Below are positions 7,375 through 22,281 of a DNA stretch of 64,000 bases, piece by piece. The stretch's first letter is position 1. Every line of letters starts with the position of its first letter. Position numbers and translations under genes: made by a program. The stretch is from Nemertoderma westbladi (lineage: Eukaryota; Animalia; Xenacoelomorpha): positions 1 to 64,000 of the forward strand of contig JAUCBJ010008372.1 of the NCBI GenBank assembly GCA_032718475.1, read 5' to 3'. The notes under the pieces were generated by a model. That model ran no database searches and was not told the DNA's origin. It worked only from the letters and a program-made list of their open reading frames with translations.

Positions 7375-7849
7375 TAACCTAGGTACATAGGTTACCTAGG
7401 TACATAGGTTACCTAGTTACATAGGTTACCTAGGTACATAGGTTACCTAGGTACATAGGTTACCTAGTTACATAGGTTACCTAGTTACATAGGTTACCTA
7501 GTTACATAGGTTACCTAGTTACATAGGTTACCTAGTTACATAGGTTACCTAGGTACATAGGTTACCTAGTTACATAGGTTACCTAGGTACATAGGTTACC
7601 TAGTTACATAGGTTACCTAGGTACATAGGTTACCTAGGTACATAGGTTACCTAGTTACATAGGTTACCTAGTTACATAGGTTACCTAGTTACATAGGTTA
7701 CCTAGTTACATAGGTTACCTAGTTACATAGGTTACCTAGGTACATAGGTTACCTAGTTACATAGGTTACCTAGGTACATAGGTTACCTAGTTACATAGGT
7801 TACCTAGGTACATAGGTTACCTAGTTACATAGGTTACCTAGGTACATAG
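7375..7849. repeat. 17-bp minisatellite tag(g/t)tacataggttacc, about 28 copies
   Basis: Directly visible tandem array with two unit variants. It ends exactly at the 5' LTR boundary. Confidence 0.97.
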
Positions 7850-9434
7850 TGTTCGCGGTATTTCAACTTTCCATAACGCGAGTTGAATATTTTTGTATTT
7901 TATTAAAATTGATTATTCCGATATTACTACTGGGTGCGGGACCATGGGTTTTGGGCACATTCAATAAACTGGGGGCGATTTATGGGCGAACTTTGGGGCA
8001 ACTTACAGGGTACGGGAATAATTTCATAGTTATAAGGGCCAGGGGGGATGGAAAATGCAAGCAGTATTCAGGTTAGCCTGAGTACTATTAGGCCCTGGCC
8101 AACTTCCTGCTGCCTGTAGGGGTGGATTTGGTAATGTGCCAGGCCTAAAGGACAAGGACTGCCCTTAGCGGTCCCTGGCCAACGGCAGCTACTACGAGCC
8201 TGAAAAGGACTCGGAACGCTGACTGCTTGTGTCAGGGATTTGCGACGGGCACCGACGGCCCCTTAGTAGCCAAGCCGTTCTGGGTCTCAATGATCGAACC
8301 CCGGGGTTCGTGAGGGGTGGAGCGGACACGCGAACAGGTGGCCAACTTAAGACTGCCCCCTGACCTAAGCCGTACTGGTTCTCGATGACCGATCCCTTTG
8401 GGGTTCGTGAGGGGTGGGACGGACATGCGAAAGGGCTGGCCACAGGACTGGTTTGACAAGGACTGCCCTTAGCGGTCTCGGGTCAACTGCGGCTACTACG
8501 AGCCTGAAAAGGACTCGGAACGCTGACTGCTTGACTGTGATTTGCGACGGGAACCGACGACAGACCCCTTAGCCAAGCCGTTCTGGTTCTCGATGATCGT
8601 TCCCTTCGGGGTTCGTGAGGGGTGGAACGGACACGCGATGGGGTCGAAAGACAAAGGACTAGACTCGACTAGACTCTACTGGCCTACCGACTGTTCGGAG
8701 CAGTTTCTCGGCTGCCGAAGCGACTACGAGCCTGAAAAGGACTCGGAAAGCCTAGGTGGTTGGGTTTCTGTGATGAACTGACGGACCCCTAGCCAAGCCG
8801 TTCTGGTTCTCGATGATCGAACCCTTCCGGGTTCGTGAGGGGTGGAACGGACACGCGAACGGGTCCACCGACACGACAGACTCCTAGCCAAGCCGTACTG
8901 GTTCTCGATGACCGAACCCTTCGGGGTTCGAGAGGGGTGGTACGGATACGCGACAGAGTCTACCGACTGGACCGACCCTTAGCCAAGCCGTGCTGGTTCT
9001 CGATGATCGTTCCCTTCGGGGTTCGTGAGGGGTGGAACGGACACGCGACAGGGTCGACCGACACCGACACTACGGCACTAAGACTGGGACTGAGGGAAAA
9101 TCTGGGGAACATTAGGTAGGCTAAAATTCTGAGCGAACAGTGGGTTATTAAATAATATACCGTAGGGATTTATATTATCGTGTATACTTATTGTGAATAT
9201 TTGGTGTATATTGATTTGGGGAAGCCCAAAATTATTCTTAATCAAGGTTCAACAGAGTTCAGTTACATTAAAGAGTATATCCAACTAATGCAGCTTTTCT
9301 CAACCGCAAACTTGCATCTTAGAAATATTCCCTCCCCACAATCAATATCCGGTGACTGGCCGGGGCTCGGTGGTCTGTTAAGTCACGTCTCCAGCATCGG
9401 CGTTTTTCCCCCTGGTGTAGGAATAACGGCAACA
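7850..9434 (+). repeat. 5' LTR (1585 bp)
   Basis: Starts tgttcgcggtatttcaac and ends ataacggcaaca. Colinear with 18243-19854. Confidence 0.93.
8258..9056 (+). ncRNA. Array of six ~85-nt structured RNA units (kink-turn-like core, C(UUCG)G apical hairpin) in the 5' LTR
   Basis: Consensus core ccgttc-tggttctc-gat-ga-t-cgaaccc-ttcg-gggttcg-t-ga-ggggtg-gaacgg at about 8258, 8353, 8563, 8783, 8878 and 8973, with compensatory changes in two stems. The repeat is directly visible; RNA function is inferred. Confidence 0.6.
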
Positions 9435-9455
9435 AAATTAAGAATAATTATATGG

Positions 9456-9602
9456 TTAATTTTGAACGGGTGTCAAAATTAAGAATAATTCACGTGGTTA
9501 ATTTTGACGGGGTGTCAAAATTAAGAATAATTAATGCGGTTAATTTTGACACGGTGTCAAAATTAAGGATAATTACGGTCAACTTCAACTGGTGGAAGTT
9601 GA
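9456..9602 (+). repeat. 42-bp-period palindromic repeats (three copies plus a fourth unrelated hairpin) at the position of the primer-binding site
   Basis: ttaattttga(c)...(g)tcaaaattaa at 9456-9482, 9498-9524 and 9540-9566; tcaacttc...gaagttga at 9579-9602. Confidence 0.85.
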
Positions 9603-9768
9603 GAATCCTTCAATACTCTTCAAAAACTCTCTATGTGCTTGCCAGCACCCACTACGAGGAAACTCTGGTATTTGAGTTGAGACAAAGTCGTGGTTTAATT
9701 AAACAACAAACTCGATCTAACCAACTCGTAGTCGGCAGATCACAATTCGGGAGAGTTGTTAACAGGGA

Positions 9769-9960
9769 ATGGAAGTATCGATCACACCCATTGATATAAT
9801 TCAAGTTGAGCCAGGAATCTGGCACGTCGAAGTTGAGGTACAAGGAACGAACGTTGGACGATTCAGGATTACTGTTCGGGTGGTCCAAGCTGAGTACAAT
9901 ACCTACGAGGAACTGTTTTACGACATCGCGTATCTCGCCATCGACGAGGCGTTACAATGA
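9769..9960 (+). CDS. Small upstream ORF (63 aa) overlapping the gag start, unknown function
   Basis: ATG start, protein-like alternating hydrophobic pattern, and its stop overlaps the gag ATG as ATGA (9957-9960). Confidence 0.4.
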   Translation: MEVSITPIDIIQVEPGIWHVEVEVQGTNVGRFRITVRVVQAEYNTYEELFYDIAYLAIDEALQ

Positions 9961-12900
9961 CCACAAATAACGTATCCGATACCGACGAGATGGATCACCA
10001 CACAGACTCGGAAGCCGACGAGGTACCAAACGTCAAGAACATGACCCGTCGGTTAGGGGCTCTTAAAGGCGGAGTAACCCGAGTGTATCAACGGATGGAG
10101 AAACAACTCAAGGGAGTCAAAACCCCCCTCAATGAGGTACAAACTCAGCTTCAAAGTATCCGAAATATCCTACAGCGGTACGAAAGAATGATACAGGCGT
10201 ACCAAGAGCTCGTTCCCCCCACCGATCTGGAAAACTACCCCAAGTTGGAAGAACACGTTGTACATCTAGATGGGTTCCGCAAACAACACCGGAGGACCCT
10301 CAGCCTTGTGAGAGGCTATGAGGAACAGTATTACAAGAGGGCCGAAAGAACAGACGCGGAATCAGTACGATCCTCCAGCATCAGGACAGCAGTACATCGA
10401 AAGAGAACGGGGTCCGTTAGAGATCAGCACTCCAGCGCTAGGAGCGAAATATCCGGCTCAGCGCGCAGTTCTCAAGGGGCGCCGCCACTCCGAGACCAAC
10501 TGCGAGAACGGAAGGCATTAGCCCTCAAAGCTCGGATGGAAGATGAGTATATTCAACTGCAAGCCGAGCAAGATGTATTAGCCGCCGAAACACAAAAGCG
10601 AGAGGCCGAACAAGAGGTCGAACGACGGGTCGAACAACGCAGACAGGAGGTCAGACAGGAGATCGAACAACGTGAACGAGAGGCCAAACGAGAGATCGAA
10701 CAACATGAACGGGAGGCCAAACAAGAGATCGAACAACGTAAATGGGAAGCAGAAATGCGTAAACAACACGCCGAGGCCCAAGCGATTCTCACTCACAAAA
10801 AGAATGCAGATATTGCGAAACTGGCGGAATACGAGGCCGCACTTATAGAACGAGATATTCAACTCTACGAGGACTGGGAAAGGGATATAGATCAGGAATA
10901 TGAACCAATTCCGATACCGGAGTTAGAAAAGTCATTTACACCAACAGCGACGAAACCTCCGAAACTCGAGATCCCGCCTACCAAACAGTCTACGCTATCG
11001 GCACAAGCTCCGGTGTTTCATCCCCCACCGGCTACGCTAAAGAATGAGGAACCCTATTTCCCATCCAACACCACGACAGCGAGTGTACCCAAGTACGAGC
11101 CTGAAAAGGACTCGGAACGGGACGCCACTCCCCGATCAAACAACCCATTTACATCAACACCACAAACTCGCAGCCGCGTCATTATTAAAACTCCACCTAC
11201 TATTGATCCATCAAGTATGGGAGTGAGTGCCAATAACTATAACCCTCCGAGTCACTCTAGTTCAGACGACGTCAGCATCATCCGGGCGTTGGAGAACCGC
11301 CTTGCCATGCCAAAGATGGAGATTCGCACCTTCGAAGGAGATCCCGTCGATTACCTCAGATTCAAGAAACGGTTCTTTGCGCAGATCGGATCAACGGACA
11401 TAGCCGACGCACAGAAATTGGTATATTTATCGCAATACCTGGGTGACAAGCCACGCAGAATTGTTGCATGTTTTGAGGGAGGTTCTCATGAGGCATACTA
11501 TGACGCATGGAAAACTCTAGATAAAAGATACGGAAATACCGGAACTATAATTAATAAAACTCTAGAGAAACTGATACAAGACGCGGGATCACTAGGGGAC
11601 CCACAGAACCTCCAGGAATTCTCAGATTCCATGAAGGATGCCTACTACACTCTGAAACCCTTAAATAAGGAGGACCAGGTGAACAACATTCTAAACCTCC
11701 GACAGATCGCCCGGAAGTTCCCCGGATGGCTGCAAAGTAAGTGGGCCTATAAATGCGTAGATCTCCGGCGCAGACATCCAGATCAAGATCCCAGCTTCCT
11801 CGAAATGTCGGCATTCCTGGACGATATCTCCGAAGCCATGAATGACTCGATGTTCTCGAAACAAAGTCTCGCCAAGTTGGACGCAATGGAGAGCAATTAC
11901 CAGAGCAGGGCACCCACTCCAAACCCAAGATTCCGCCCTACTCCTGTGAGTGCGATGGCCATCAGTATGGCTGAGGACTCGGATGACGAGGATTACGAGG
12001 AACCGACCTCAGCAGAAGAATGGGCATGCTACCTAGCGAATTGGGCACCCGAAAGGGAAGGCACCACAGCCTCCCCTATATGTCTCTTCTGTGGGGAGAA
12101 ACACAAAGTGGAATTCTGCAGAAAGTTTCAGTTCGCCGAACTCGTCCCACGCTTCGAGGCGATAATGAAACACCGAGGATGCTTCCGGTGTCTTGGAACA
12201 GGTCACTATGTTCGGGAGTGCGACCAAAGATCATGCTGTACTGTCTGTAACGACCAACGCCATCACACGCTCCTCCACATCCCCGCGAACTTCGATTTTA
12301 CTACCCTCCCCTTTCGGATCGAAGCCAGGCGAAGAGGAGAAACAAACCACATCTTCAAAGGAACCCGGACAACCCAACGGAGAGAAACCAACCCGTTTAA
12401 GATCTCCACCAATACACCACAAGTAACCAATATTTCGGCCACGATTAATCTTATAAATCGCCGCTACATGGTTTTCGCAAAGGTAATCCCAGTGAGGATC
12501 CAAGGAGTCGGCAAATCTTTGACGACACTCGCGTTCCTCGATAACGGGTCTGACGGAACCATCATCGACCGGGATTTCCTCGAGCAACTCGGCCTAGAAT
12601 ATGAACCTTGTAAACGGCCCATACAAACCATCACCGATAACAGAGAGGTAGAGTCCGGGGAGGTGCAACTCCAGATGGAAGGAGTGATGAAGGGCTACGA
12701 AACGGCTAAGTTAACCATAAAGAACGCCTTGGTACACACAGACCTCCGGGTGCGGTTCCGACAATCAGCCGAGTACGCCCCCCTCATACAATTGGACCGG
12801 GACGATGTAGACCTGAGGTGTCCGCAGTTGGACGTAAACCGTATCACCCTACTGATCGGACTTGATACACCGGAACTACACATCCCCACAGGAGATATCG

Positions 12901-13817
12901 CCCGATCTATAAACCAGGATGACGGATTTTATGCTGAACGAACAATAATGGGATGGACACTCTGCGGCATTAAGGAGGAAACTACGGACACCTATACCTA
13001 CCTTCCTAAATGTCAGATTAAAGAGAATGTAACCTCTGTGGGTTATTGCTCAGTTTCGGATCTTGACGAGGATTTGTTTCTGGAAACAGAGAAAACCCAA
13101 CGAGAGATGACGAAATATTTTAATTTGGAGACCCAGGAGTTCGCGGAAAAGGACGAAAACCCATCCGAAGAGGACCAATATTGTATGGACGTTCTCGACC
13201 AGGCCACGTTTAAAGACGGACATTGGCGCGTACCCATGCTTTGGTGGATAATAAGGTTATTGATGATAATAATGATGTTGATAACATTGACACCATTAAT
13301 TGGAGAGCACGGACTAATCTGCCGTAATACCCGGATGGCGAACGCCTCAGTTGAGTCCCTCACTCCTAACCACTTACTGGGGAGACCCAAAACCCACCTC
13401 CTCCCGGAAACCATGTTCCCGGATCCCAACGAGATCGCGAAACATACAAACTGGAAAAAGGCCCAAGCGTTGGCAGCGCATTGGTGGAGGATTTGGGCCC
13501 AGGAATATCTCATAACCCTCCGGACCAGGAGGAAATGGAACAACACCCACCGGAACGTCGCAGTTGGCGACATGGTACTAGTTAGAGAAGATCTCAAAGA
13601 CCGCGTTCACTGGCCTGTGGCGCGGGTCGTGACCATACACCCAAGCAAAGACGGACTTGCGAGGACTGTGACGATACGAACGAAAGCGGGCCACTACCAA
13701 CGCCCCATCCAGAAGCTGTGCCTTCTTGAAGGCAATGACAGTGGTGATTCTACAAGAGGTGATAAGTTCCCTACGGATCCTACTGCAGACATTGGTGACA
13801 ATTACAAATGCGTTTAA
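9957..13817 (+). CDS. gag-pol: BEL/Pao Gag-protease polyprotein fused in frame to the integrase C-terminal tail (RT, RNase H and integrase core missing)
   Basis: Coiled-coil N-terminus; capsid-like FEGDPVDYLRF..YLSQYL..LDKRYG; knuckles CLFCGEKHKVEFC, CFRCLGTGHYVREC and CTVCNDQRHHTLLH; protease LAFLDNGSDGT. DGHWRVPMLW is followed within ~40 aa by LTPNHLL..WWRIWAQEYL..VGDMVLV..WPVARV..RPIQKLCLL. No RT catalytic or DDE motifs. Confidence 0.92.
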   Translation: MTTNNVSDTDEMDHHTDSEADEVPNVKNMTRRLGALKGGVTRVYQRMEKQLKGVKTPLNEVQTQLQSIRNILQRYERMIQAYQELVPPTDLENYPKLEEHVVHLDGFRKQHRRTLSLVRGYEEQYYKRAERTDAESVRSSSIRTAVHRKRTGSVRDQHSSARSEISGSARSSQGAPPLRDQLRERKALALKARMEDEYIQLQAEQDVLAAETQKREAEQEVERRVEQRRQEVRQEIEQREREAKREIEQHEREAKQEIEQRKWEAEMRKQHAEAQAILTHKKNADIAKLAEYEAALIERDIQLYEDWERDIDQEYEPIPIPELEKSFTPTATKPPKLEIPPTKQSTLSAQAPVFHPPPATLKNEEPYFPSNTTTASVPKYEPEKDSERDATPRSNNPFTSTPQTRSRVIIKTPPTIDPSSMGVSANNYNPPSHSSSDDVSIIRALENRLAMPKMEIRTFEGDPVDYLRFKKRFFAQIGSTDIADAQKLVYLSQYLGDKPRRIVACFEGGSHEAYYDAWKTLDKRYGNTGTIINKTLEKLIQDAGSLGDPQNLQEFSDSMKDAYYTLKPLNKEDQVNNILNLRQIARKFPGWLQSKWAYKCVDLRRRHPDQDPSFLEMSAFLDDISEAMNDSMFSKQSLAKLDAMESNYQSRAPTPNPRFRPTPVSAMAISMAEDSDDEDYEEPTSAEEWACYLANWAPEREGTTASPICLFCGEKHKVEFCRKFQFAELVPRFEAIMKHRGCFRCLGTGHYVRECDQRSCCTVCNDQRHHTLLHIPANFDFTTLPFRIEARRRGETNHIFKGTRTTQRRETNPFKISTNTPQVTNISATINLINRRYMVFAKVIPVRIQGVGKSLTTLAFLDNGSDGTIIDRDFLEQLGLEYEPCKRPIQTITDNREVESGEVQLQMEGVMKGYETAKLTIKNALVHTDLRVRFRQSAEYAPLIQLDRDDVDLRCPQLDVNRITLLIGLDTPELHIPTGDIARSINQDDGFYAERTIMGWTLCGIKEETTDTYTYLPKCQIKENVTSVGYCSVSDLDEDLFLETEKTQREMTKYFNLETQEFAEKDENPSEEDQYCMDVLDQATFKDGHWRVPMLWWIIRLLMIIMMLITLTPLIGEHGLICRNTRMANASVESLTPNHLLGRPKTHLLPETMFPDPNEIAKHTNWKKAQALAAHWWRIWAQEYLITLRTRRKWNNTHRNVAVGDMVLVREDLKDRVHWPVARVVTIHPSKDGLARTVTIRTKAGHYQRPIQKLCLLEGNDSGDSTRGDKFPTDPTADIGDNYKCV

Positions 13818-14426
13818 ACCCTTCTCATCATGTTGACAAACTCTTATTAAACTGTGATTTATCGACAATGAGTTATGGACCCCCCTTAAACCAACTGTAA
13901 CCACGCAATGGTATTTGTGTTTCCTCGTGTGTTATGTGGAGTCCAGCATCACCCTGCAGATGTTTCGACTGACGCAGGGTCGTTTATGCATTGTTTACCC
14001 TGATTTTGGTCACCGCGTTCACTGGCCTGTGGCGCGGGTCGTGACCATACACCCAAGCAAAGACGGACTTGCGAGGACTGTGACGATACGAACGAAATCG
14101 GGCCACTACCAACGCCCCATCTAGAAGCTGTGCCTTCTTGAAGGCAATGACAGTGGTGATTCTACAAGAGGTGATAAGTTCCCTACTACGGATCCTGCTG
14201 CAGACATTGGTGACAATTACAAATGCGTGTAACCCTTCTCATCATGTTGACAAACTCTTTTAAAACTGTGATTTATCGACAACGAGTTATGGACCCCCCT
14301 TAAACCAACTGTAACCACGCAATGGTATTTGTGTTTCCTCGTGTGTTATGTGGAGTCCAGCATCACCCTGCAGATGTTTCGGCTGACGCAGGGTCGTTTA
14401 TGTATTGTTTACCCTGATTTTGGTCA
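13601..14426 (+). repeat. Tandem duplication (~412 bp x2) of the pol 3' end and downstream sequence
   Basis: ccgcgttcactggcctgtgg...ctgattttggtca occurs at 13601-14012 and 14013-14426. Confidence 0.95.
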
Positions 14427-14514
14427 TCAGGACCTACGATATTGGATTATTGGAAATGGAAAAGATTTGAAGTGGAATTCATTGTATTCATTGCAGTATG
14501 TTATGTTGTCCGTT

Positions 14515-14930
14515 GCGTGCGCAGTTCGGGGCGTAGGCGGTGTAACGAGTCCAGCTGTAGATCCCGGATTGCCGCGCAACACCCCCTCTATCCCGTTATT
14601 CTGGTGGGTCCATGGTGCATCCACATGACTTCGACGATAGAGGGTTTTATGTTTCTCAGTCGCGTTATTCTGGTGGGACCGTTGTGTGGATTTTAGGGCG
14701 TAGGCGGTGTAACGAGTCCAGCTGTAGATCCCAGAATGTTGCGTAACCCCATCCCACATGACTTCGTCGACTGAGCTTTATGTTGTTGGGAGTGTTATTC
14801 TGGTGGGTCCCTGGTGCATTCCACGTGACTTCACTCCCAGCGTCTTCATTGTCCGTTACGTGCGCAGTTTGGGGCGTAGGCGGTGTAACGAGTCCAGCTG
14901 TAGATCCCAGATTGCCGCGTAACACCCCTT
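14515..14930 (+). repeat. Two interleaved GC-rich motifs, three copies each, in the pol-ORF3 spacer
   Basis: gggcgtaggcggtgtaacgagtccagctgtagatccc at about 14530, 14696 and 14872; gttattctggtggg(t/a)cc at about 14595, 14664 and 14794. Confidence 0.85.
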
Positions 14931-15477
14931 CCACGACAAAGATTAGCCAAAGAAAATGATTGAATATAGTTGGAAACGATGAAAAGGATCAGACAACTCT
15001 ACTATAAACCTGAATGATGACGCGTATGCTGATGAAAATGAAATGATGCGCACCCTGGTGCTGCGCTTATAACCAATGATGATAGCCGGGGGGCTATAAA
15101 CCCAATGATGATGTGGAAATAAATAAATGTGAAATAAATGGTGGAACTAAATGTTGAAATATATGTGGAAATAAATGAAATGAGATGAAATAATAATGAA
15201 ATGAAAAAAGACAAAAAAAAGGCATAAAAAAGGTCAAAGAAAAGAATTGGAAAAAAGAAAGGACAAAAAAGTCATAAAAAACTGGTTGGATATTATGTAT
15301 AGCTATAGTAACTGTAAATGCTGAATGTATTAGCAATAAGATGATAGATGTCTATATAGCAATATTATTTAATAAACTGAATTGAATAAAAACTGAATTA
15401 TTCTGCTATCGCTATAGATTCAGACTTTCTGGACTTACAATTAACTGAACTAATTTGTAACGGATATAATCGTAAAT

Positions 15478-18078
15478 ATGGACCCAAATCGCCAAATTAT
15501 CGGCGAATTACGTAACACGATAGATCTACTGGAATATTCGCAACCCGGATCCCCTGACTTCGATACAAATTGGAGCACCCTGCTAAATGAGAACGTGCGA
15601 GTCATTAAATTCACCGGGCGAGAGGGACCGGATTCTAAGAATCTACGAGCCCTCCGGTTAGCTGATGCTAGTACGAGACTGAAAAGAACTCGGAACGCAA
15701 AGGCAACCGGAGGGGACGATTCGTCGTTTTGGGAAACGTTCCAGCAGAGCGTCTACAGATCCCGATGTTTGATCTACGACAACGAGGGAAACGCGACGCC
15801 CACCTCGAAAGCGATTACGTTGGCGAGATGTCAAAGTTTCGTCGACGACAAGAGTACGTACCTCGCCCACTGGGGAAACCTGTCGGAGTGTACGGCGACG
15901 CTTCGAGAGGAACGCGTATCGATTATCCAAAACCGCGACGACTACCAGGAAAAGTACGGGGCGAAAGAATACGGTCGATCCTTAGTCGTCGTCCTCGGAA
16001 CCCTGGACGGTTTGGTACTGGTGTGCCGAATATTCCCGACACCCAGACAGGAAGTGCAGGCAGCCGGAGCGATCTGGTTGCTGCCTCCGGAAATCCAAAA
16101 GATCCTCTTCGACTTTGACGTCATTAAAATCGGGTCGGATATCAAGGCGGACGTCCGGAACGACTACGCGAACGCTCCTACAGGATGAAACCGACGAGAC
16201 GACCTCAACGCCCTTGGCCATTGCATCGACACTCAAACGTTACTAGCCTGGTTACGATTCGCCGAGTTCATGCGAGGATTCCAAGAGGTGAGACCGACGA
16301 AATCCGGGATCGGCTACCTCGCTGTGCTAAACGGCGGTATCGACTTCAAACCCCAGAAATTCCGGGACTATAATAAAATATACAGTGGATACCCGGGATT
16401 GGAAATAAAGAGCGAGCGAGAGGGTCGATGGAAGGACGTTGATCGGAAGTGGACGATACACCAAAGATGGGAGAATCCCGATCGACGGAACTACGTTTAC
16501 GTCGTTATGGAATGCTACACCGTCGCTAAGTTTATCTGTAAAACTCTCGATAACCTTATTACGGCGGTCCCCCTTTCCTTCGTCGACTACGACTGGAACG
16601 AGGTTATAAACCACGCGTTTAAAGCGGTCGAGAACATTACACCGGGAGAATCGAAAACACCCGCCGTTATCGATTCCTGGGACGAGAGCGGACCTTACGA
16701 CATCCCTACGATTACCGAACTTCTCGGTGCGGAGGAGCCTCTGATCTCTTCGGAAGGGGAAGAGATATGGCTAAACGAGGGTGTTCTACTCTCCACCCCG
16801 AAGTGACAACTAGAGCCGGAGGCCGCGTATGGACCGGCCGCCAAACGGGTTGCCTCGACCGAATCGATGAAGAGAGCAGGCGTTTACACTCCACGCGGCT
16901 CCGGTAGCCCCGCGAGGGAGGTGGCTACTACAGCTGCATTGAGCGACTTCGGCGACATATGCCAACGGTTATCCCCGTATCCTTTCCCGGGTGGCGAAGA
17001 TTGGTCGTCGGAGATTCCGAGTACCAGCCACCAACGGACCCGCGCAGCGATACTGATCGAGGAGGGCCCCAGCGACGCGCCGACCCCCGACGATCTCCTC
17101 GGTATCCCTCCGTCGAAAACCCCGGCACCTCTTCGCCGACCAGTGGTGGCTACTACACCCGCCGTTCCTCAGGACCCTATGCGACTAACCCGTTGGTACG
17201 CCGAGCAAACTGAATGGATCCACCGCCAGAAACGGTCATCCGAGTTGAGACCAGCGGGACACAAAGAAGGTTATCGGAGCGAGAACCTATTACGCAAAAG
17301 CCTAGCATTCCGCGGGCTACCGACCACCGAGAATATTCCGAAGAGCGACCGACGACTCGAATACTACGTCGGCGTCCCGATTCCGATATTCCCCGGTCGA
17401 GAGATGCAGTTGGAGGTATGCGGCGACTGCGGCTCGGAGCAGTGCCCACGCGGCAGAAGGAATCGGGTTACCGATTCTTGCCTCCAGCTCCTCGGGATAC
17501 TCTATTGCCCATACTGCGCGACATCGGGCCACGACGTTTCCGTCTGCCCGATCCTTTATAACCTCTGCACCACGTGCGGTTTCCGTGGACATTCCTCTAG
17601 CCCCCGCTGCTATATCAAATGTCCAACCAAAGACGTTACCGCTATGGGCAATATGGTCATGTTTGAAACATACGCAAACAGCCATTTAAAGACCAAGGTT
17701 CGGAGAAACGCTCGGAATATCGCGCAGGAGATGGCGTGCGGATATTTCTCCTTCCTGGAACGCCTCCACACGTCGGCCACGCTACCTTTCCATTACGTGG
17801 ATCTACTACTGAGCGCCGGATTATTCGGTCCATTTGAAGTCATTAGACAATTATACTCGTATAAAGAGGAGTTCGGTGATGGAGAATGGTTCCTAGAGGC
17901 ACGCAAATCTGAGTTGGAAAGACGAACCGACATGATCCCGATGCCTTCGAAAGGAAGAGCCGCCAGGAGACAAGCCGAAGCGTTACTCACGATGGACGTT
18001 GATGCTCCTCTACCAGCCATAGCGATCGATGAGAGTCGACGGGCGAAGAGACGAAAGGCGTATCAGAGAAAGAAATAG
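15478..18078 (+). CDS. Retrotransposon accessory ORF: DEDDy-like (WRN/EXD/RNase D-type) 3'-5' exonuclease plus C-terminal Cys/His zinc knuckles; one frame of ~866 codons interrupted by two in-frame TGA
   Basis: ORFs 15478, 16270 and 16867 are in the same frame and separated only by TGA at 16186 and 16804. Motifs: ExoI-like LIYDNEG; LPPEIQKILFDFDVIKIGSDIKAD (ExoII); CIDTQTL; SGIGYL; W...YVYVVMEC (ExoIII-like YxxxE); CPYCATSGHDVSVC; CTTCGFRGHSSSPRC. Confidence 0.7.
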
Positions 18079-18230
18079 TGGATCGGGATATTCCAGGAAC
18101 ATTTATCGAACATTTATTTTTTATACAAACTCTAGGCCAAATTAATTAAAAACTATGCAATATTAAATTTGGGTTTTTTATTGGGAATGACCTACGCAAA
18201 CTCAATCGACCGACAGACTTCACGAAGGTC

Positions 18231-18242
18231 ATTGGGGGGGAC
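18231..18242 (+). promoter_or_regulatory. Polypurine tract
   Basis: attgggggggac immediately before the 3' LTR TGTT. Confidence 0.75.
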
Positions 18243-19854
18243 TGTTCGCGGTATTTCAACTTTCCATAACGCGAGTTGAATATTTTTGTATTTTATTTAA
18301 AATTGATTATTCCGATATTACTACTGGGTGCGGGACCATGGGTTTTGGGCACATTCAATAAACTGGGGGCGATTTATGGGCGAACTTTGGGGCAACTTAC
18401 AGGGTACGGGAATAATTTCATAGTTATAAGGGCCAGGGGGGGATGGAAAATGCAAGCAGTATTCAGGTTAGCCTGAGTACTATTAGGCCCTGGCCAACTT
18501 CCTGCTGCCTGTAGGGGTGGATTTGGTAATGCGCCAGGCCTAAAGGACAAGGACTGCCCTTAGCGGTCCCTGGCCAACAGCAGCCATTACGAGACTGAAA
18601 AGAACTCGGACCGCTGACTGCTTGTGTCAGGGATTTGCGACGGGCACCGTAGTAGCTTAGTAGCCAAGCCGTTCTGGTTCTCGATGATCGTTCCCTTCAG
18701 GGTTCGTGAGGGGTGGAGCGGACACGCGAACGGGTGGCCAACTAACGACTGCCCCCTGACCTAAGCCGTACTGGTTCTCGATGACCGATCCCTTCGGGGT
18801 TCGTGAGGGGTGGGACGGACATGCGAAAGGGCTGGCCACAGGACGGGTTTGACGAGAACTGCCCTTAGCGGTCTCTGGTCAACGGCAGCTACTACGAGAC
18901 TGAAAAGAACTCGGAACGCTGACTGCTTGTACTGGGATTTGTGACGGGAACCGACGACAGACCCCTTAGCCAAGCCGTACTGGTTCTCAATGATCGTTCC
19001 CTTCGGGGTTCGTGAGGGGTGGAACGGACACGCGATGGGGTCGAAAGACAAAGGACTAGACTCGACTAGACTCTACTGGCCTACCGACTGTTCGGAGCAG
19101 TTTCTCGGCTGCCGAAGCGACTACGAGCCTGAAACGGACTCGGAAAGCCTAGGTGGTTGGGTTTCTGTGATGAACCGACGGACCCCTAGCCAAGCCGTTC
19201 TGGTTCTCGATGATCGAACCCTTCGGGGTTCGTGAGGGGTGGAACGGACACGCGAACGGGTCCACCGACACGACAGACTCCTAGCCAAGCCGTACTGGTT
19301 CTCGATGACCGAACCCTTCGGGGTTCGAGAGGGGTGGTACGGATACGCGACAGAGTCTACCGACTGGACCGACCCTTAGCCAAGCCGTGCTGGTTCTCGA
19401 TGATCGTTCCCTTCGGGGTTCGTGAGGGGTGGAACGGACACGCGACAGGGTCGACCGACACCGACACTACGGCACTAAGACTGGGACCGAGGGAAAATCT
19501 GGGGAACATTAGGTAGGCTAAAATTCTGAGCGAACAGTGGGTAATTAAATAATATACCGTAGGGATTTATATTATCGTGTATAATTATTGTGAATATTTG
19601 GTGTATATTGATTTGGGGAAGCCCAAAATTATTCTTAATCAAGTTTCAATGATGTTGAACGGGTTTCAACTATAGGAAGTTACATTAAAGAGTATATCCA
19701 ACTAATGCAGCTTTTTATCAACCGCAAACTTGCATCTCAGAAAATATTCCCTCCCCACAATCAATATCCGGTGACTGGCCGGGGCTCGGTGGTCTGTTAA
19801 GTCACGTCTCCAGCATCGGCGTTTTTCCCCCCTGGTGTAGGGATAACGGCAACA
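18243..19854 (+). repeat. 3' LTR (1612 bp), with the same six-unit hairpin array
   Basis: tgttcgcggta...ataacggcaaca. Similar but not identical to the 5' LTR (indel near 19645-19680, substitutions in 18580-18960). Confidence 0.93.
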
Positions 19855-22281
19855 AGTATTGATACAGAATATGATACCCTGACCTTTTTGAAATTTCCCA
19901 CCACCACAAACAAACAAACATACTTTCCCACAAACAGAGAAATGTATCATTGGATTTGGTAGGTTTTCTCATGTTACAATAAGTGTGGAATTATTGTACT
20001 GTTTATAGCAGAGTAAGTGTCTTATTCAAAAATTACGAGTGTACAGAACAGTGAGTGTGGAAAAATAGTAATGTAAGTTCAAATAAGTACTGTATATAAG
20101 TGCCACTCATCAAAGAAAGTATAATTTTTAATGTCGTTTTATTCCTGGTAAAATAAATTATTATAAAAATATATGTATATAAATTAGTTCGTATTTGAAT
20201 AGTTTCGTGAGTTGCCAAATCGGTTGGATCTATATATGGGAGTCTAGAACTGACACGTTATATTCGTCGAATAAGTGGCCATTGTCGATACAGTGTTGTG
20301 TTATTCCAAAACGTTTATAGCCATTATATAAGACCGCATATAACTGTAAATCGATACTTTTCATTTACCAATTACCATTATTTACATTCAAATTTTAAGC
20401 CCACCACCAACACTGTCAGTAAAAACTCTAACACTCTCCATAAATAATGTTCGTTGTGGTGTTTTATATGTTTTAGTTTAAGTTTCCCAATGCAATTATG
20501 GTCAGTTCAGGCATTACAGTCTATTTTACATAATGCATGCATGAGTTTAACCTTCTTTCCCAACCATCTTTAAATCGGAGCAAACAGTAGTTGTTTATAT
20601 TAACAGTATACTGTATCGCGGGTAGTTGTTTATATTAACAGTATACAGTATCGCGGGTAGTTGTATATATTAACAGTATACAGTATCATGGGTAGTTGTT
20701 TATATTAACAGTATACAGTATCATGGGTAGTTGTATATATTAACAGTATCGCGGGTAGTTGTTTATATTAACAGTATACAGGATCGCGGGTAGTTGTTTA
20801 TATTAACAGTATACAGTATCGCGGGTAGTTGTTTATATTAACAGTATACAGTATCGCGGGTAGTTGTTTATATTAACAGTATTCAGTATCGCGGGTAGTT
20901 GTTTATATTAACAGTATACAGTATCGCGGGTAGTTGTTTATACTAACAGTATCGCAGGTAGTTGTTTATATTAACAGTATCGCAGGTAGTTGTTTATATT
21001 AACAGTATCGCAGGTAGTTGTTTATATTAACAGTATACAGTATCGCGGGTAGTTGCTTATATTAACAGTATACAGTATCGTGGGTAGTTGTTTATATTAA
21101 CAGTACAGTATCACGGGTAGTTGTTTATATTAACAGTATCGCGGGTAGTTGTTTATATTAACAGTATAAAGTATCGTGGGTAGTGGTTTATATTAACAGT
21201 ATCGCAGGTAGTTGTTTATATTAAAAGTATACAGTATCGCGGGTAGTTGTTTATATTAACAGTATACAATATCGCAGGTAGTTGTTTATATTAACAGTAT
21301 CGCAGGTAGTTGTTTATATTAACAGTATACAGTATCGCGGGTAGTTGTTTATATTAACAGTATACAGTATCGTGGGTAGTTGTTTATATTAACAGTACAG
21401 TATCGCAGGTAGTTGTTTATATTAACAGTATCGCAGGTAGTTGTTTATATTAACAGTATACAGTATAGCGGGTAGTTGTATATATTAACAGTATACAGTA
21501 TCACGGGTAGTTGTTTATATTAACAGTACAGTATCGCGGGTAGTTGTTTATATTAACAGTATACACTATCGCGGGTAGTTGTTTATATTAACAGTACAGT
21601 ATCGCGGGTAGTTGTTTATATTAACAGTATACAGTATCGTGGGTAGTGGTTTATATTAACAGTATCGCAGGTAGTTGTTTATATTAACAGTATACAGTAT
21701 CGCGGGTAGTTGTTTATATTAACAGTATACAGTATCGCAGGTAGTTGTTTATATTAACAGTATCGCAGGTAGTTGTTTATATTAACAGTATACAGTATCG
21801 CGGGTAGTTGTTTATATTAACAGTATACACTATCGCGGGTAGTTGTTTATATTAACAGTACAGTATCGCGGGTAGTTGTATATATTAACAGTATCGCGGG
21901 TAGTTGTTTATATTAACAGTACAGTATCGCAGGTAGTTGTTTATATTAACAGTATTGCAGGTAGTTGTTTATATTAACATTATACAGTATCGCGGGTAGT
22001 TGATTATATTAACAGTATACAGTATTGCGGGTAGTTGTTTATATTAACAGTACAGTATCGCAGGTAGTTGTTTATATTAACAGTATTGCAGGTAGTTGTT
22101 TATATTAACAGTATACAGTATCGCGGGTAGTTGTTTATATTAACAGTATACAGTATCGCAGGTAGTTGTTTATATTAACAGTATACAGTATCGCGGGTAG
22201 TTGTTTATATTAACAGTATACAGTATCGTGGGTAGTTGTTTATATTAACAGTACAGTATCGCAGGTAGTTGTTTATATTAA

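Follow-up and report, generated by a model that had tools for sequence, protein, structure and literature searches.

The element and its repeated module

The stretch of DNA analyzed here, 64,000 nucleotides of contig JAUCBJ010008372.1 of Nemertoderma westbladi (hereafter the window), contains a BEL/Pao long terminal repeat (LTR) retrotransposon with an additional open reading frame (ORF3) of exonuclease-like and zinc-knuckle character. On the forward strand, the 5' LTR (7850..9434, bounded by TG...CA) is followed by an ORF for gag (DUF1759, CCHC knuckle) and protease, which runs in frame into the integrase C-terminal domain DUF5641 (9894..13817), by ORF3 (15478..18078) and by the 3' LTR (18243..19854), just before which lies a G-rich polypurine tract. 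Both LTRs and both ORFs harbor a short repeated module, termed module A, which is very probably a selected RNA structure. Six of its copies are in the LTRs, three in each, and two are inside coding genes.

The count of eight copies, put forward in an earlier sequence-only reading of this DNA, was borne out by a degenerate 23-nt pattern, which matched the window at 8193, 8497, 8725, 11094, 15672, 18588, 18893 and 19122, always on the forward strand, and matched in none of 100 shuffled sequences. The two coding copies are indeed read in different frames, as YEPEKDSER in gag and TRLKRTRN in ORF3. The relationship proposed between the versions also held: the 5' LTR copies at 8193 and 8497 are identical to the gag copy at 11094 over 26/26 nt (the copy at 8725 matches over 24 nt), and the 3' LTR copies at 18588 and 18893 share the A·A letters of the ORF3 copy. 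Covariance models built from the copies found no ninth copy on either strand of the window, the only extra matches being two at noise level (E=4.7). Motif scans of viral contigs and of genome contigs gave no match, and related-locus scans of viral contigs found no relatives. Four motif matches in metagenome contigs scored 13-22 bits, compared to 55-62 bits for the true copies, shared nothing else with the window and were set aside as chance.

Predicted RNA fold

The motif had been described as a 26-nt hairpin; its unit is in fact a predicted module of 30 nt, since the motif continues on either side into an internal loop of sarcin-ricin type and the helix that closes it. It consists of the loop (A-N-U-A / G-A-A), a 4-bp stem, a bulged A and a GAAA hairpin, the tetraloop being invariant in all eight copies. 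In the predicted folds the hairpin caps a longer stem, with a 5x4 internal loop beneath it (z -1.5 to -4.9). In register, C-x-A-N-U-A-C stands opposite G-G-A-(A/C)-y-G, which is the 7x6 form of the sarcin-ricin motif, and a loop of this type explains both the boundaries of the motif and its pattern of variation. The proposed fold cgag-cct-GAAA-agg-a-ctcg stood in four of the eight copies and failed in the other four, where an A·A lies beside the bulge or the loop-closing pair is broken.

In the 5' LTR, copy L5a (8189..8218; fold z -4.9) has a U·C lower pair, a bulged C, the CGAG/CUCG stem, the bulged A and the GAAA loop; L5b (8493..8522) also has U·C and a bulged C, and L5c (8721..8750; z -3.7) has G·A and a bulged C between different arms. 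The gag copy (11090..11119) carries the canonical AGUA/GAA loop with an A·C lower pair, closed by CCC/GGG. The ORF3 copy (15668..15697; z -4.5) has the canonical CUAGUAC/GGAACG loop with the A·A variant beside the bulge, and lies at the tip of a predicted hairpin of ~100 nt (15633-15734). In the 3' LTR, L3a (18584..18613) combines a C·C lower pair, a bulged U, an A·C and the A·A variant, L3b (18889..18918) has U·C, a bulged C and the A·A variant, and L3c (19118..19147) has G·A and a bulged C, with the loop-closing pair broken. All eight copies are on the forward strand.

The AGUA/GAA loop closed by Watson-Crick pairs is thus canonical in the gag and ORF3 copies (2/8), has a bulged C in five copies, and a U together with A·C in one. 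The lower (x·y) pair is U·C in four copies, G·A in two, A·C in one and C·C in one, and never Watson-Crick. Variants known from sarcin-ricin motifs cover all four of these lower-pair types and both types of the trans Hoogsteen/Hoogsteen (tHH) pair. As reported in PMC8450098, the lower pairs U·C, A·C, G·A and C·C have the highest stability measured for the motif, A·C replaces A·A in bacterial 23S rRNA, and a bulged C is conserved in helix h27 of 16S rRNA, a bulged U occurring as well. The AUUA sequence of copy L3a has a counterpart in RT-10, where, as described in PMC13085918, a protein arginine takes the place of the G.

A scan for the loop pattern that ignored the stem sequence returned exactly the eight sites on the forward strand, none on the reverse strand and none in 20 shuffles, with a pattern that had been designed after the motif was seen. 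The copies stand in four sequence contexts, the arms of which have only 7-14 of 30 letters in common, and the closing arms pair in all four, with duplex energies within the best 0.2%, 0.6%, 2.1% and 7.4% of 5000 random flank pairs. When arms were exchanged, three of the four 5' arms paired best with their own 3' arm, and that of L5a paired better with the L5c arm. Over the eight copies, 92.5% of the cells are paired and double-sided changes occur at 2/10 pairs, in counts whose controls are inflated by the relatedness of the copies; in the helix directly below the loop they occur at two of three pairs. The variants differ in two letters, which are the two partners of one pair beside the bulge (C-G versus A·A), a variation that fits RNA geometry better than a DNA site.

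Other structured RNAs were also considered. Rfam gave no match at E<=5 over 7800-19900, with ribozyme, 5S, snoRNA and SECIS families included. A SECIS element was rejected for its short upper helix and missing apical As, and no core match was apparent to lambda boxB or to the hammerhead, twister, HDV and hairpin ribozymes.

Constraint at the gag copy

The use of different frames by the two coding copies had been taken to place the constraint on the nucleotides, and variation within the family agrees with this for gag. Family contigs from three public runs of three studies were aligned on 11010-11200 (all 26 variant rows at >=1%), the motif being taken as 11092-11119 and the flank sites being counted between the first and last variable sites (11042-11168). 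In the flanks, 22/99 positions vary, among them 16/34 third positions, compared to 0/9 third codon positions in the motif (p 0.008); synonymous variation at the gag copy is therefore suppressed across the family. Holding flank variants to the higher depth of the motif left 12/34 variable flank third positions (p 0.036), matching for codon degeneracy gave P 0.008 (0.052 with the strict threshold), and narrower or wider definitions of the motif gave p 0.015-0.11.

At the sole variable site in the motif (1/28), Lys is replaced by Arg and the loop-closing U-A becomes U·G, so that the pair is kept; this variant stands at 21-28% of depth and also occurs in the only X4 contig to cover the whole region. 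In the flank, a variant at 11091 exchanges A·C for C·C, both of which are allowed lower pairs. The synonymous third position in the GAAA loop is invariant, and the A·A variant of the ORF3 type was not seen in the gag copy among the family contigs. In the ORF3 arm, at 15663, most family contigs have C-G and this copy has U·G. Taken together, the family evidence for suppressed synonymous change at the gag copy is moderate.

The third open reading frame

ORF3 joins a 3'-5' exonuclease-like domain to tandem nucleocapsid-like Cys/His knuckles and a basic tail. It is interrupted by two in-frame TGA stops, at 16186 and 16804, the first of which is not common to the family contigs covering it. A readthrough signal at the second is not supported, since almost all family contigs of X1 and X3 have another letter at the sixth position past the stop (16812).

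Seven distant homologs of ORF3 were found, four of which have the exonuclease-like region and the knuckles in one protein. The first catalytic D-x-E motif is present in homologs P0010 and P0012 and absent from ORF3 here, and an X4 contig over 15078-16178 has no insertion able to hold it. No Pfam match for an exonuclease domain was obtained for ORF3, and the label is based on a language-model lead for P0010 and on motifs judged by eye: P0010 scored 0.94 to a cluster in which 34% of the members carry PF01612, shared by 25 of the 30 matches. A word-based protein search with the N-terminal half of ORF3 returned none of 5658 candidates, and AlphaFold models of four homologs were unusable (pLDDT 35). 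The knuckles of P0010 match HIV nucleocapsid (E 1e-4). Judged from its sequence, ORF3 looks catalytically dead, and because it lacks the first exonuclease motif and the knuckles of its family match HIV nucleocapsid, it is a candidate RNA-binding protein encoded on the same element.

Modules of the LTRs and architecture of the element

Each LTR, 1.6 kb in length and made up of structured modules, contains six predicted stem-loops of 95 nt (B modules) in addition to its three A modules. Those of the 5' LTR occupy 8257..9060 on the forward strand (8257, 8352, 8560, 8780, 8875 and 8970), and those of the 3' LTR 18651-19457. All 12 were recovered in the LTRs and none in the ORFs; most have a cUUCGg apex, and their outer stems covary. 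They also possess a basal loop of UA/GA type (AGUA/GAA in the first copy of each LTR), and a possible kink-turn, GAUGA/UGA, competes with the 8-bp register. Shortened variants of the LTR retain one A module with a B module after it (joints 18644 to 19176 and 8262 to 19282; X5 record 24), and LTR length variants in the family (18644-19377) drop whole modules. A TATA-like box at 8031 and ATTAAA at 9147 and 9267 would place every LTR module within the R region.

The two LTRs are 95.4% identical (blastn), with 48 substitutions clustered at 8150-8550 and 9250-9350. The assignment to BEL/Pao follows from the order of DUF1759 gag, aspartic protease and DUF5641 (E 4e-15, 6e-5 and 1e-28), with PF03564 carried by 8/8 matches, and from the paired TG...CA LTRs and the polypurine tract. 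No domain match for reverse transcriptase (RT) or RNase H was found in this copy, and from 13226 the family contigs continue with other sequence; this copy is therefore a BEL/Pao deletion derivative. A short filler lies at the pol deletion (13226-13300), where rows 13248-13301 stand at ~3-7% of the neighboring contig depth in run X1 and at 5-30% in X3. The flanks at 7844-7849 and 19855-19860 differ, so that no target-site duplication was found, and the two halves of the element may for this reason come from different insertions, i.e. be recombinant. The family comprises many variant copies in the host; 13,338 and 5,804 contigs aligned in two runs, figures that are not a copy number.

Further repeats accompany the element. 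A 17-nt tandem array (7377-7849) abuts its 5' end, and a 42-nt repeat of 3.4 copies (9433-9575), ~128 nt of which is skipped by other family contigs, directly follows the 5' LTR. The integrase end and the sequence downstream of it form a tandem 414-nt duplication (13600-14426). Upstream of ORF3 lie three 83-nt repeats (module C, 14506..14931, forward strand), two of which fold into long hairpins (z about -2.4) whose outer stem shows a compensatory change, and the third of which does not. Large satellite arrays with units of 35, 36 and 30 nt are found downstream of the element (20587-57130), and ARAGORN reported no tRNAs.

Interpretation

The observation of module A is real, the module is selected and it is better defined than first noted; its partner is putative. 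As in the sequence-only reading, a dispersed protein operator is the favored and likely explanation, the module being a putative binding site. The eight copies would represent one sense-strand RNA module, in which a sarcin-ricin loop, a bulged stem and a GAAA tetraloop together adopt a three-dimensional fold. In the RNA of the element, LTR copies included, they would act as repeated, high-specificity binding sites for a zinc-knuckle protein, either ORF3 or Gag, and the bound protein may coat the RNA for packaging or transport. With a site inside each ORF, several sites would be distributed along the RNA, and any shorter ORF3 message would retain one. That the partner is a knuckle protein of the element itself, ORF3 ahead of Gag, whose predicted binding marks the RNA for assembly or transport, has about an even chance of being correct. 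ORF3 is preferred because it looks catalytically dead, because its knuckles resemble those of nucleocapsid and because one copy of the site lies within it. A more elaborate form of this proposal, which is conceivable and put forward only tentatively, is a self-contained system akin to Rev/RRE, in which the dead exonuclease-knuckle ORF3 would recognize a sarcin-ricin and GAAA operator placed by selection in the LTRs as well as in both ORFs, and in which the LTR would form an elaborate RNA scaffold where A and B modules alternate.

Several observations weigh against the operator and against the fold on which it is built. The A·A beside the bulge, found in three of the eight copies (ORF3, 18588 and 18893), breaks a pair, and six of the eight lack the bulged G. 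The LTR copies may fold less well, because solved structures rarely show a bulged C or A, which costs ~5 kcal/mol in stability (PMC8450098), and five of these copies carry a C. In gag, the strict threshold combined with the 26-nt or the helix-extended definition gives p 0.054-0.11, and a variant at 11120, present at 1-3%, would break a closing pair. The sites compared in that test are non-independent owing to subfamilies, contig depth is a crude weight, and the motif is covered at up to 2.5 times the depth of its flanks. Furthermore, the evidence does not favor an element protein over a host protein as the partner.

It is rather unlikely that the same fold is instead recognized by a host partner, with the module either mimicking 5S rRNA loop E or the ribosomal sarcin-ricin loop, or recruiting an Egalitarian-type adaptor of the host for export or transport. 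The overall shape of the module may be like that of 5S helix IV/loop D. The ORF3 copy has the prototype loop sequence, loop E of 5S rRNA is itself a sarcin-ricin motif (PMC8450098), and the I-factor relies on a host adaptor (PMC13186709). Against this stand the empty Rfam search over the element, the deviation of six of the eight copies at the bulged G, and a GC-rich stem devoid of the U-A pairs that Egl prefers according to PMC13186709.

RNA-RNA docking, whereby the GAAA loops would enter the 95-nt B modules and thus compact or dimerize the RNA, with the coding copies reaching spare receptors at the LTR ends, is somewhat less probable still. It accords with the invariance of GAAA in all copies, with its fixed synonymous third position in gag and with the retention of A followed by B in shortened LTR variants. 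In addition, the lower loop of the B modules (GCCAAG/CACGC or CCUAAG/CAUGC), the sole receptor-like loop, resembles the 11-nt GAAA receptor, and its core of C2-G10, A4-A5 and A8 is present in all 12 B copies. However, two further core features of that receptor, U3·A8 and the G6·U7 wobble, are missing: position 3 is U in 2/12 copies and C in 10/12, and positions 6-7 form a Watson-Crick G-C in 12/12. Such changes are costly, since GAAA binding was lost with most alterations of the 3-8 step and a Watson-Crick pair at 6-7 had a deleterious effect (PMC10243134, PMC2275092), and no B module lies near the coding copies. The docking element suggested by the sequence-only reading is thereby weakened, and its idea that the LTR copies serve as decoys found no support.

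Neutral copying, through template switching or gene conversion of an LTR stretch into both ORFs, or a transcription-factor site acting at the level of DNA, is improbable. The LTR copies do switch between letters of the gag type and of the ORF3 type, and the LTR is recombinogenic, as seen in its module-number variants and the missing target-site duplication. Yet identity ends at the loop boundaries while the unrelated arms still pair, the tolerated changes are wobble or isosteric on the forward strand, and the loose ends of some contigs from diverged subfamilies fall at 11080 or 11137, flanking the gag motif. The suppression of synonymous change at the gag copy largely refutes such an origin. 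A small-RNA precursor or a target site for PIWI-interacting RNAs (piRNAs) is highly improbable: 26 nt and a first U are compatible with the size of a piRNA and several copies sit on long hairpins, but conservation is in the apex and divergence in the arms, opposite to what microRNAs show, all copies are on the sense strand and a wobble variant is common.

The operator reading offers a sequence-defined 30-nt module that has a predicted three-dimensional fold, naturally occurring variants and a candidate partner encoded by the element itself, so that the recognition by BEL/Pao elements of their own RNA and the role of captured exonuclease-like ORF3s become testable with short RNAs and single domains.

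Comparison with known systems

A search of the literature, with most subscription journals outside its coverage, returned no paper in which a retrotransposon carries a repeated sarcin-ricin module, and in the sources that it covered the selection by BEL/Pao elements of their own RNA was not addressed. With BEL/Pao elements, the present one shares DUF1759, the aspartic protease, the CCHC knuckle, DUF5641, the TG...CA LTRs and the polypurine tract; it differs in its 1.6-kb modular, structured LTRs, its extra ORF3 and the lack of RT and RNase H in this copy. Rev/RRE and the export and packaging signals of retroviruses are structured cis-acting RNAs, which are single and large.

The module has in common with the sarcin-ricin (bulged-G, loop E) motif, as described in PMC8450098 and PMC13085918, the sequence and size of the loop, its closing pairs and the variants tolerated. 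Here, in contrast, 7 bp and a bulge lead on to a GAAA loop, the unit is repeated eight times in a retrotransposon, twice inside ORFs, six of the eight copies are without the bulged G and the fold is predicted from sequence.

The combination of an LTR retrotransposon with a third ORF for a 3'-5' exonuclease-like domain recalls the DEDDy-exonuclease ORF3 of the bdelloid elements Juno and Vesta (PMC5408684), and exonuclease ORF3s of rotifer LTR elements are also mentioned in PMC6338049. The ORF3s of Juno and Vesta keep their catalytic residues, whereas the one described here belongs to a BEL/Pao element, lacks the first motif and has tandem knuckles. PMC5408684 describes the role of such captured ORF3s with exonuclease-like domains as an open question; its main text does not contain the word "hairpin".

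A stem-loop transport signal lies in the coding sequence of the I-factor, in which bulges on the 3' strand and the presence of two stem-loops per transcript matter (PMC13186709). This signal and other Egl-BicD stem-loops described there resemble module A as stem-loops in a retrotransposon coding sequence, with a 3'-strand bulge and more than one per transcript. They share little sequence and favor U-A pairs, however, while module A is conserved in sequence, GC-rich and built around a non-canonical loop; furthermore, the I-factor is a long interspersed nuclear element (LINE) and the host of module A a BEL/Pao LTR element. The transport element of MusD (PMC3362945) is likewise a structured cis-acting RNA of an LTR element, yet it is single and large, whereas module A is small and lies scattered through the LTRs and the two ORFs. 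By analogy, module A may act like the dispersed cis-acting RNA signals exemplified by the I-factor signal and the MusD element, while being a member of neither.

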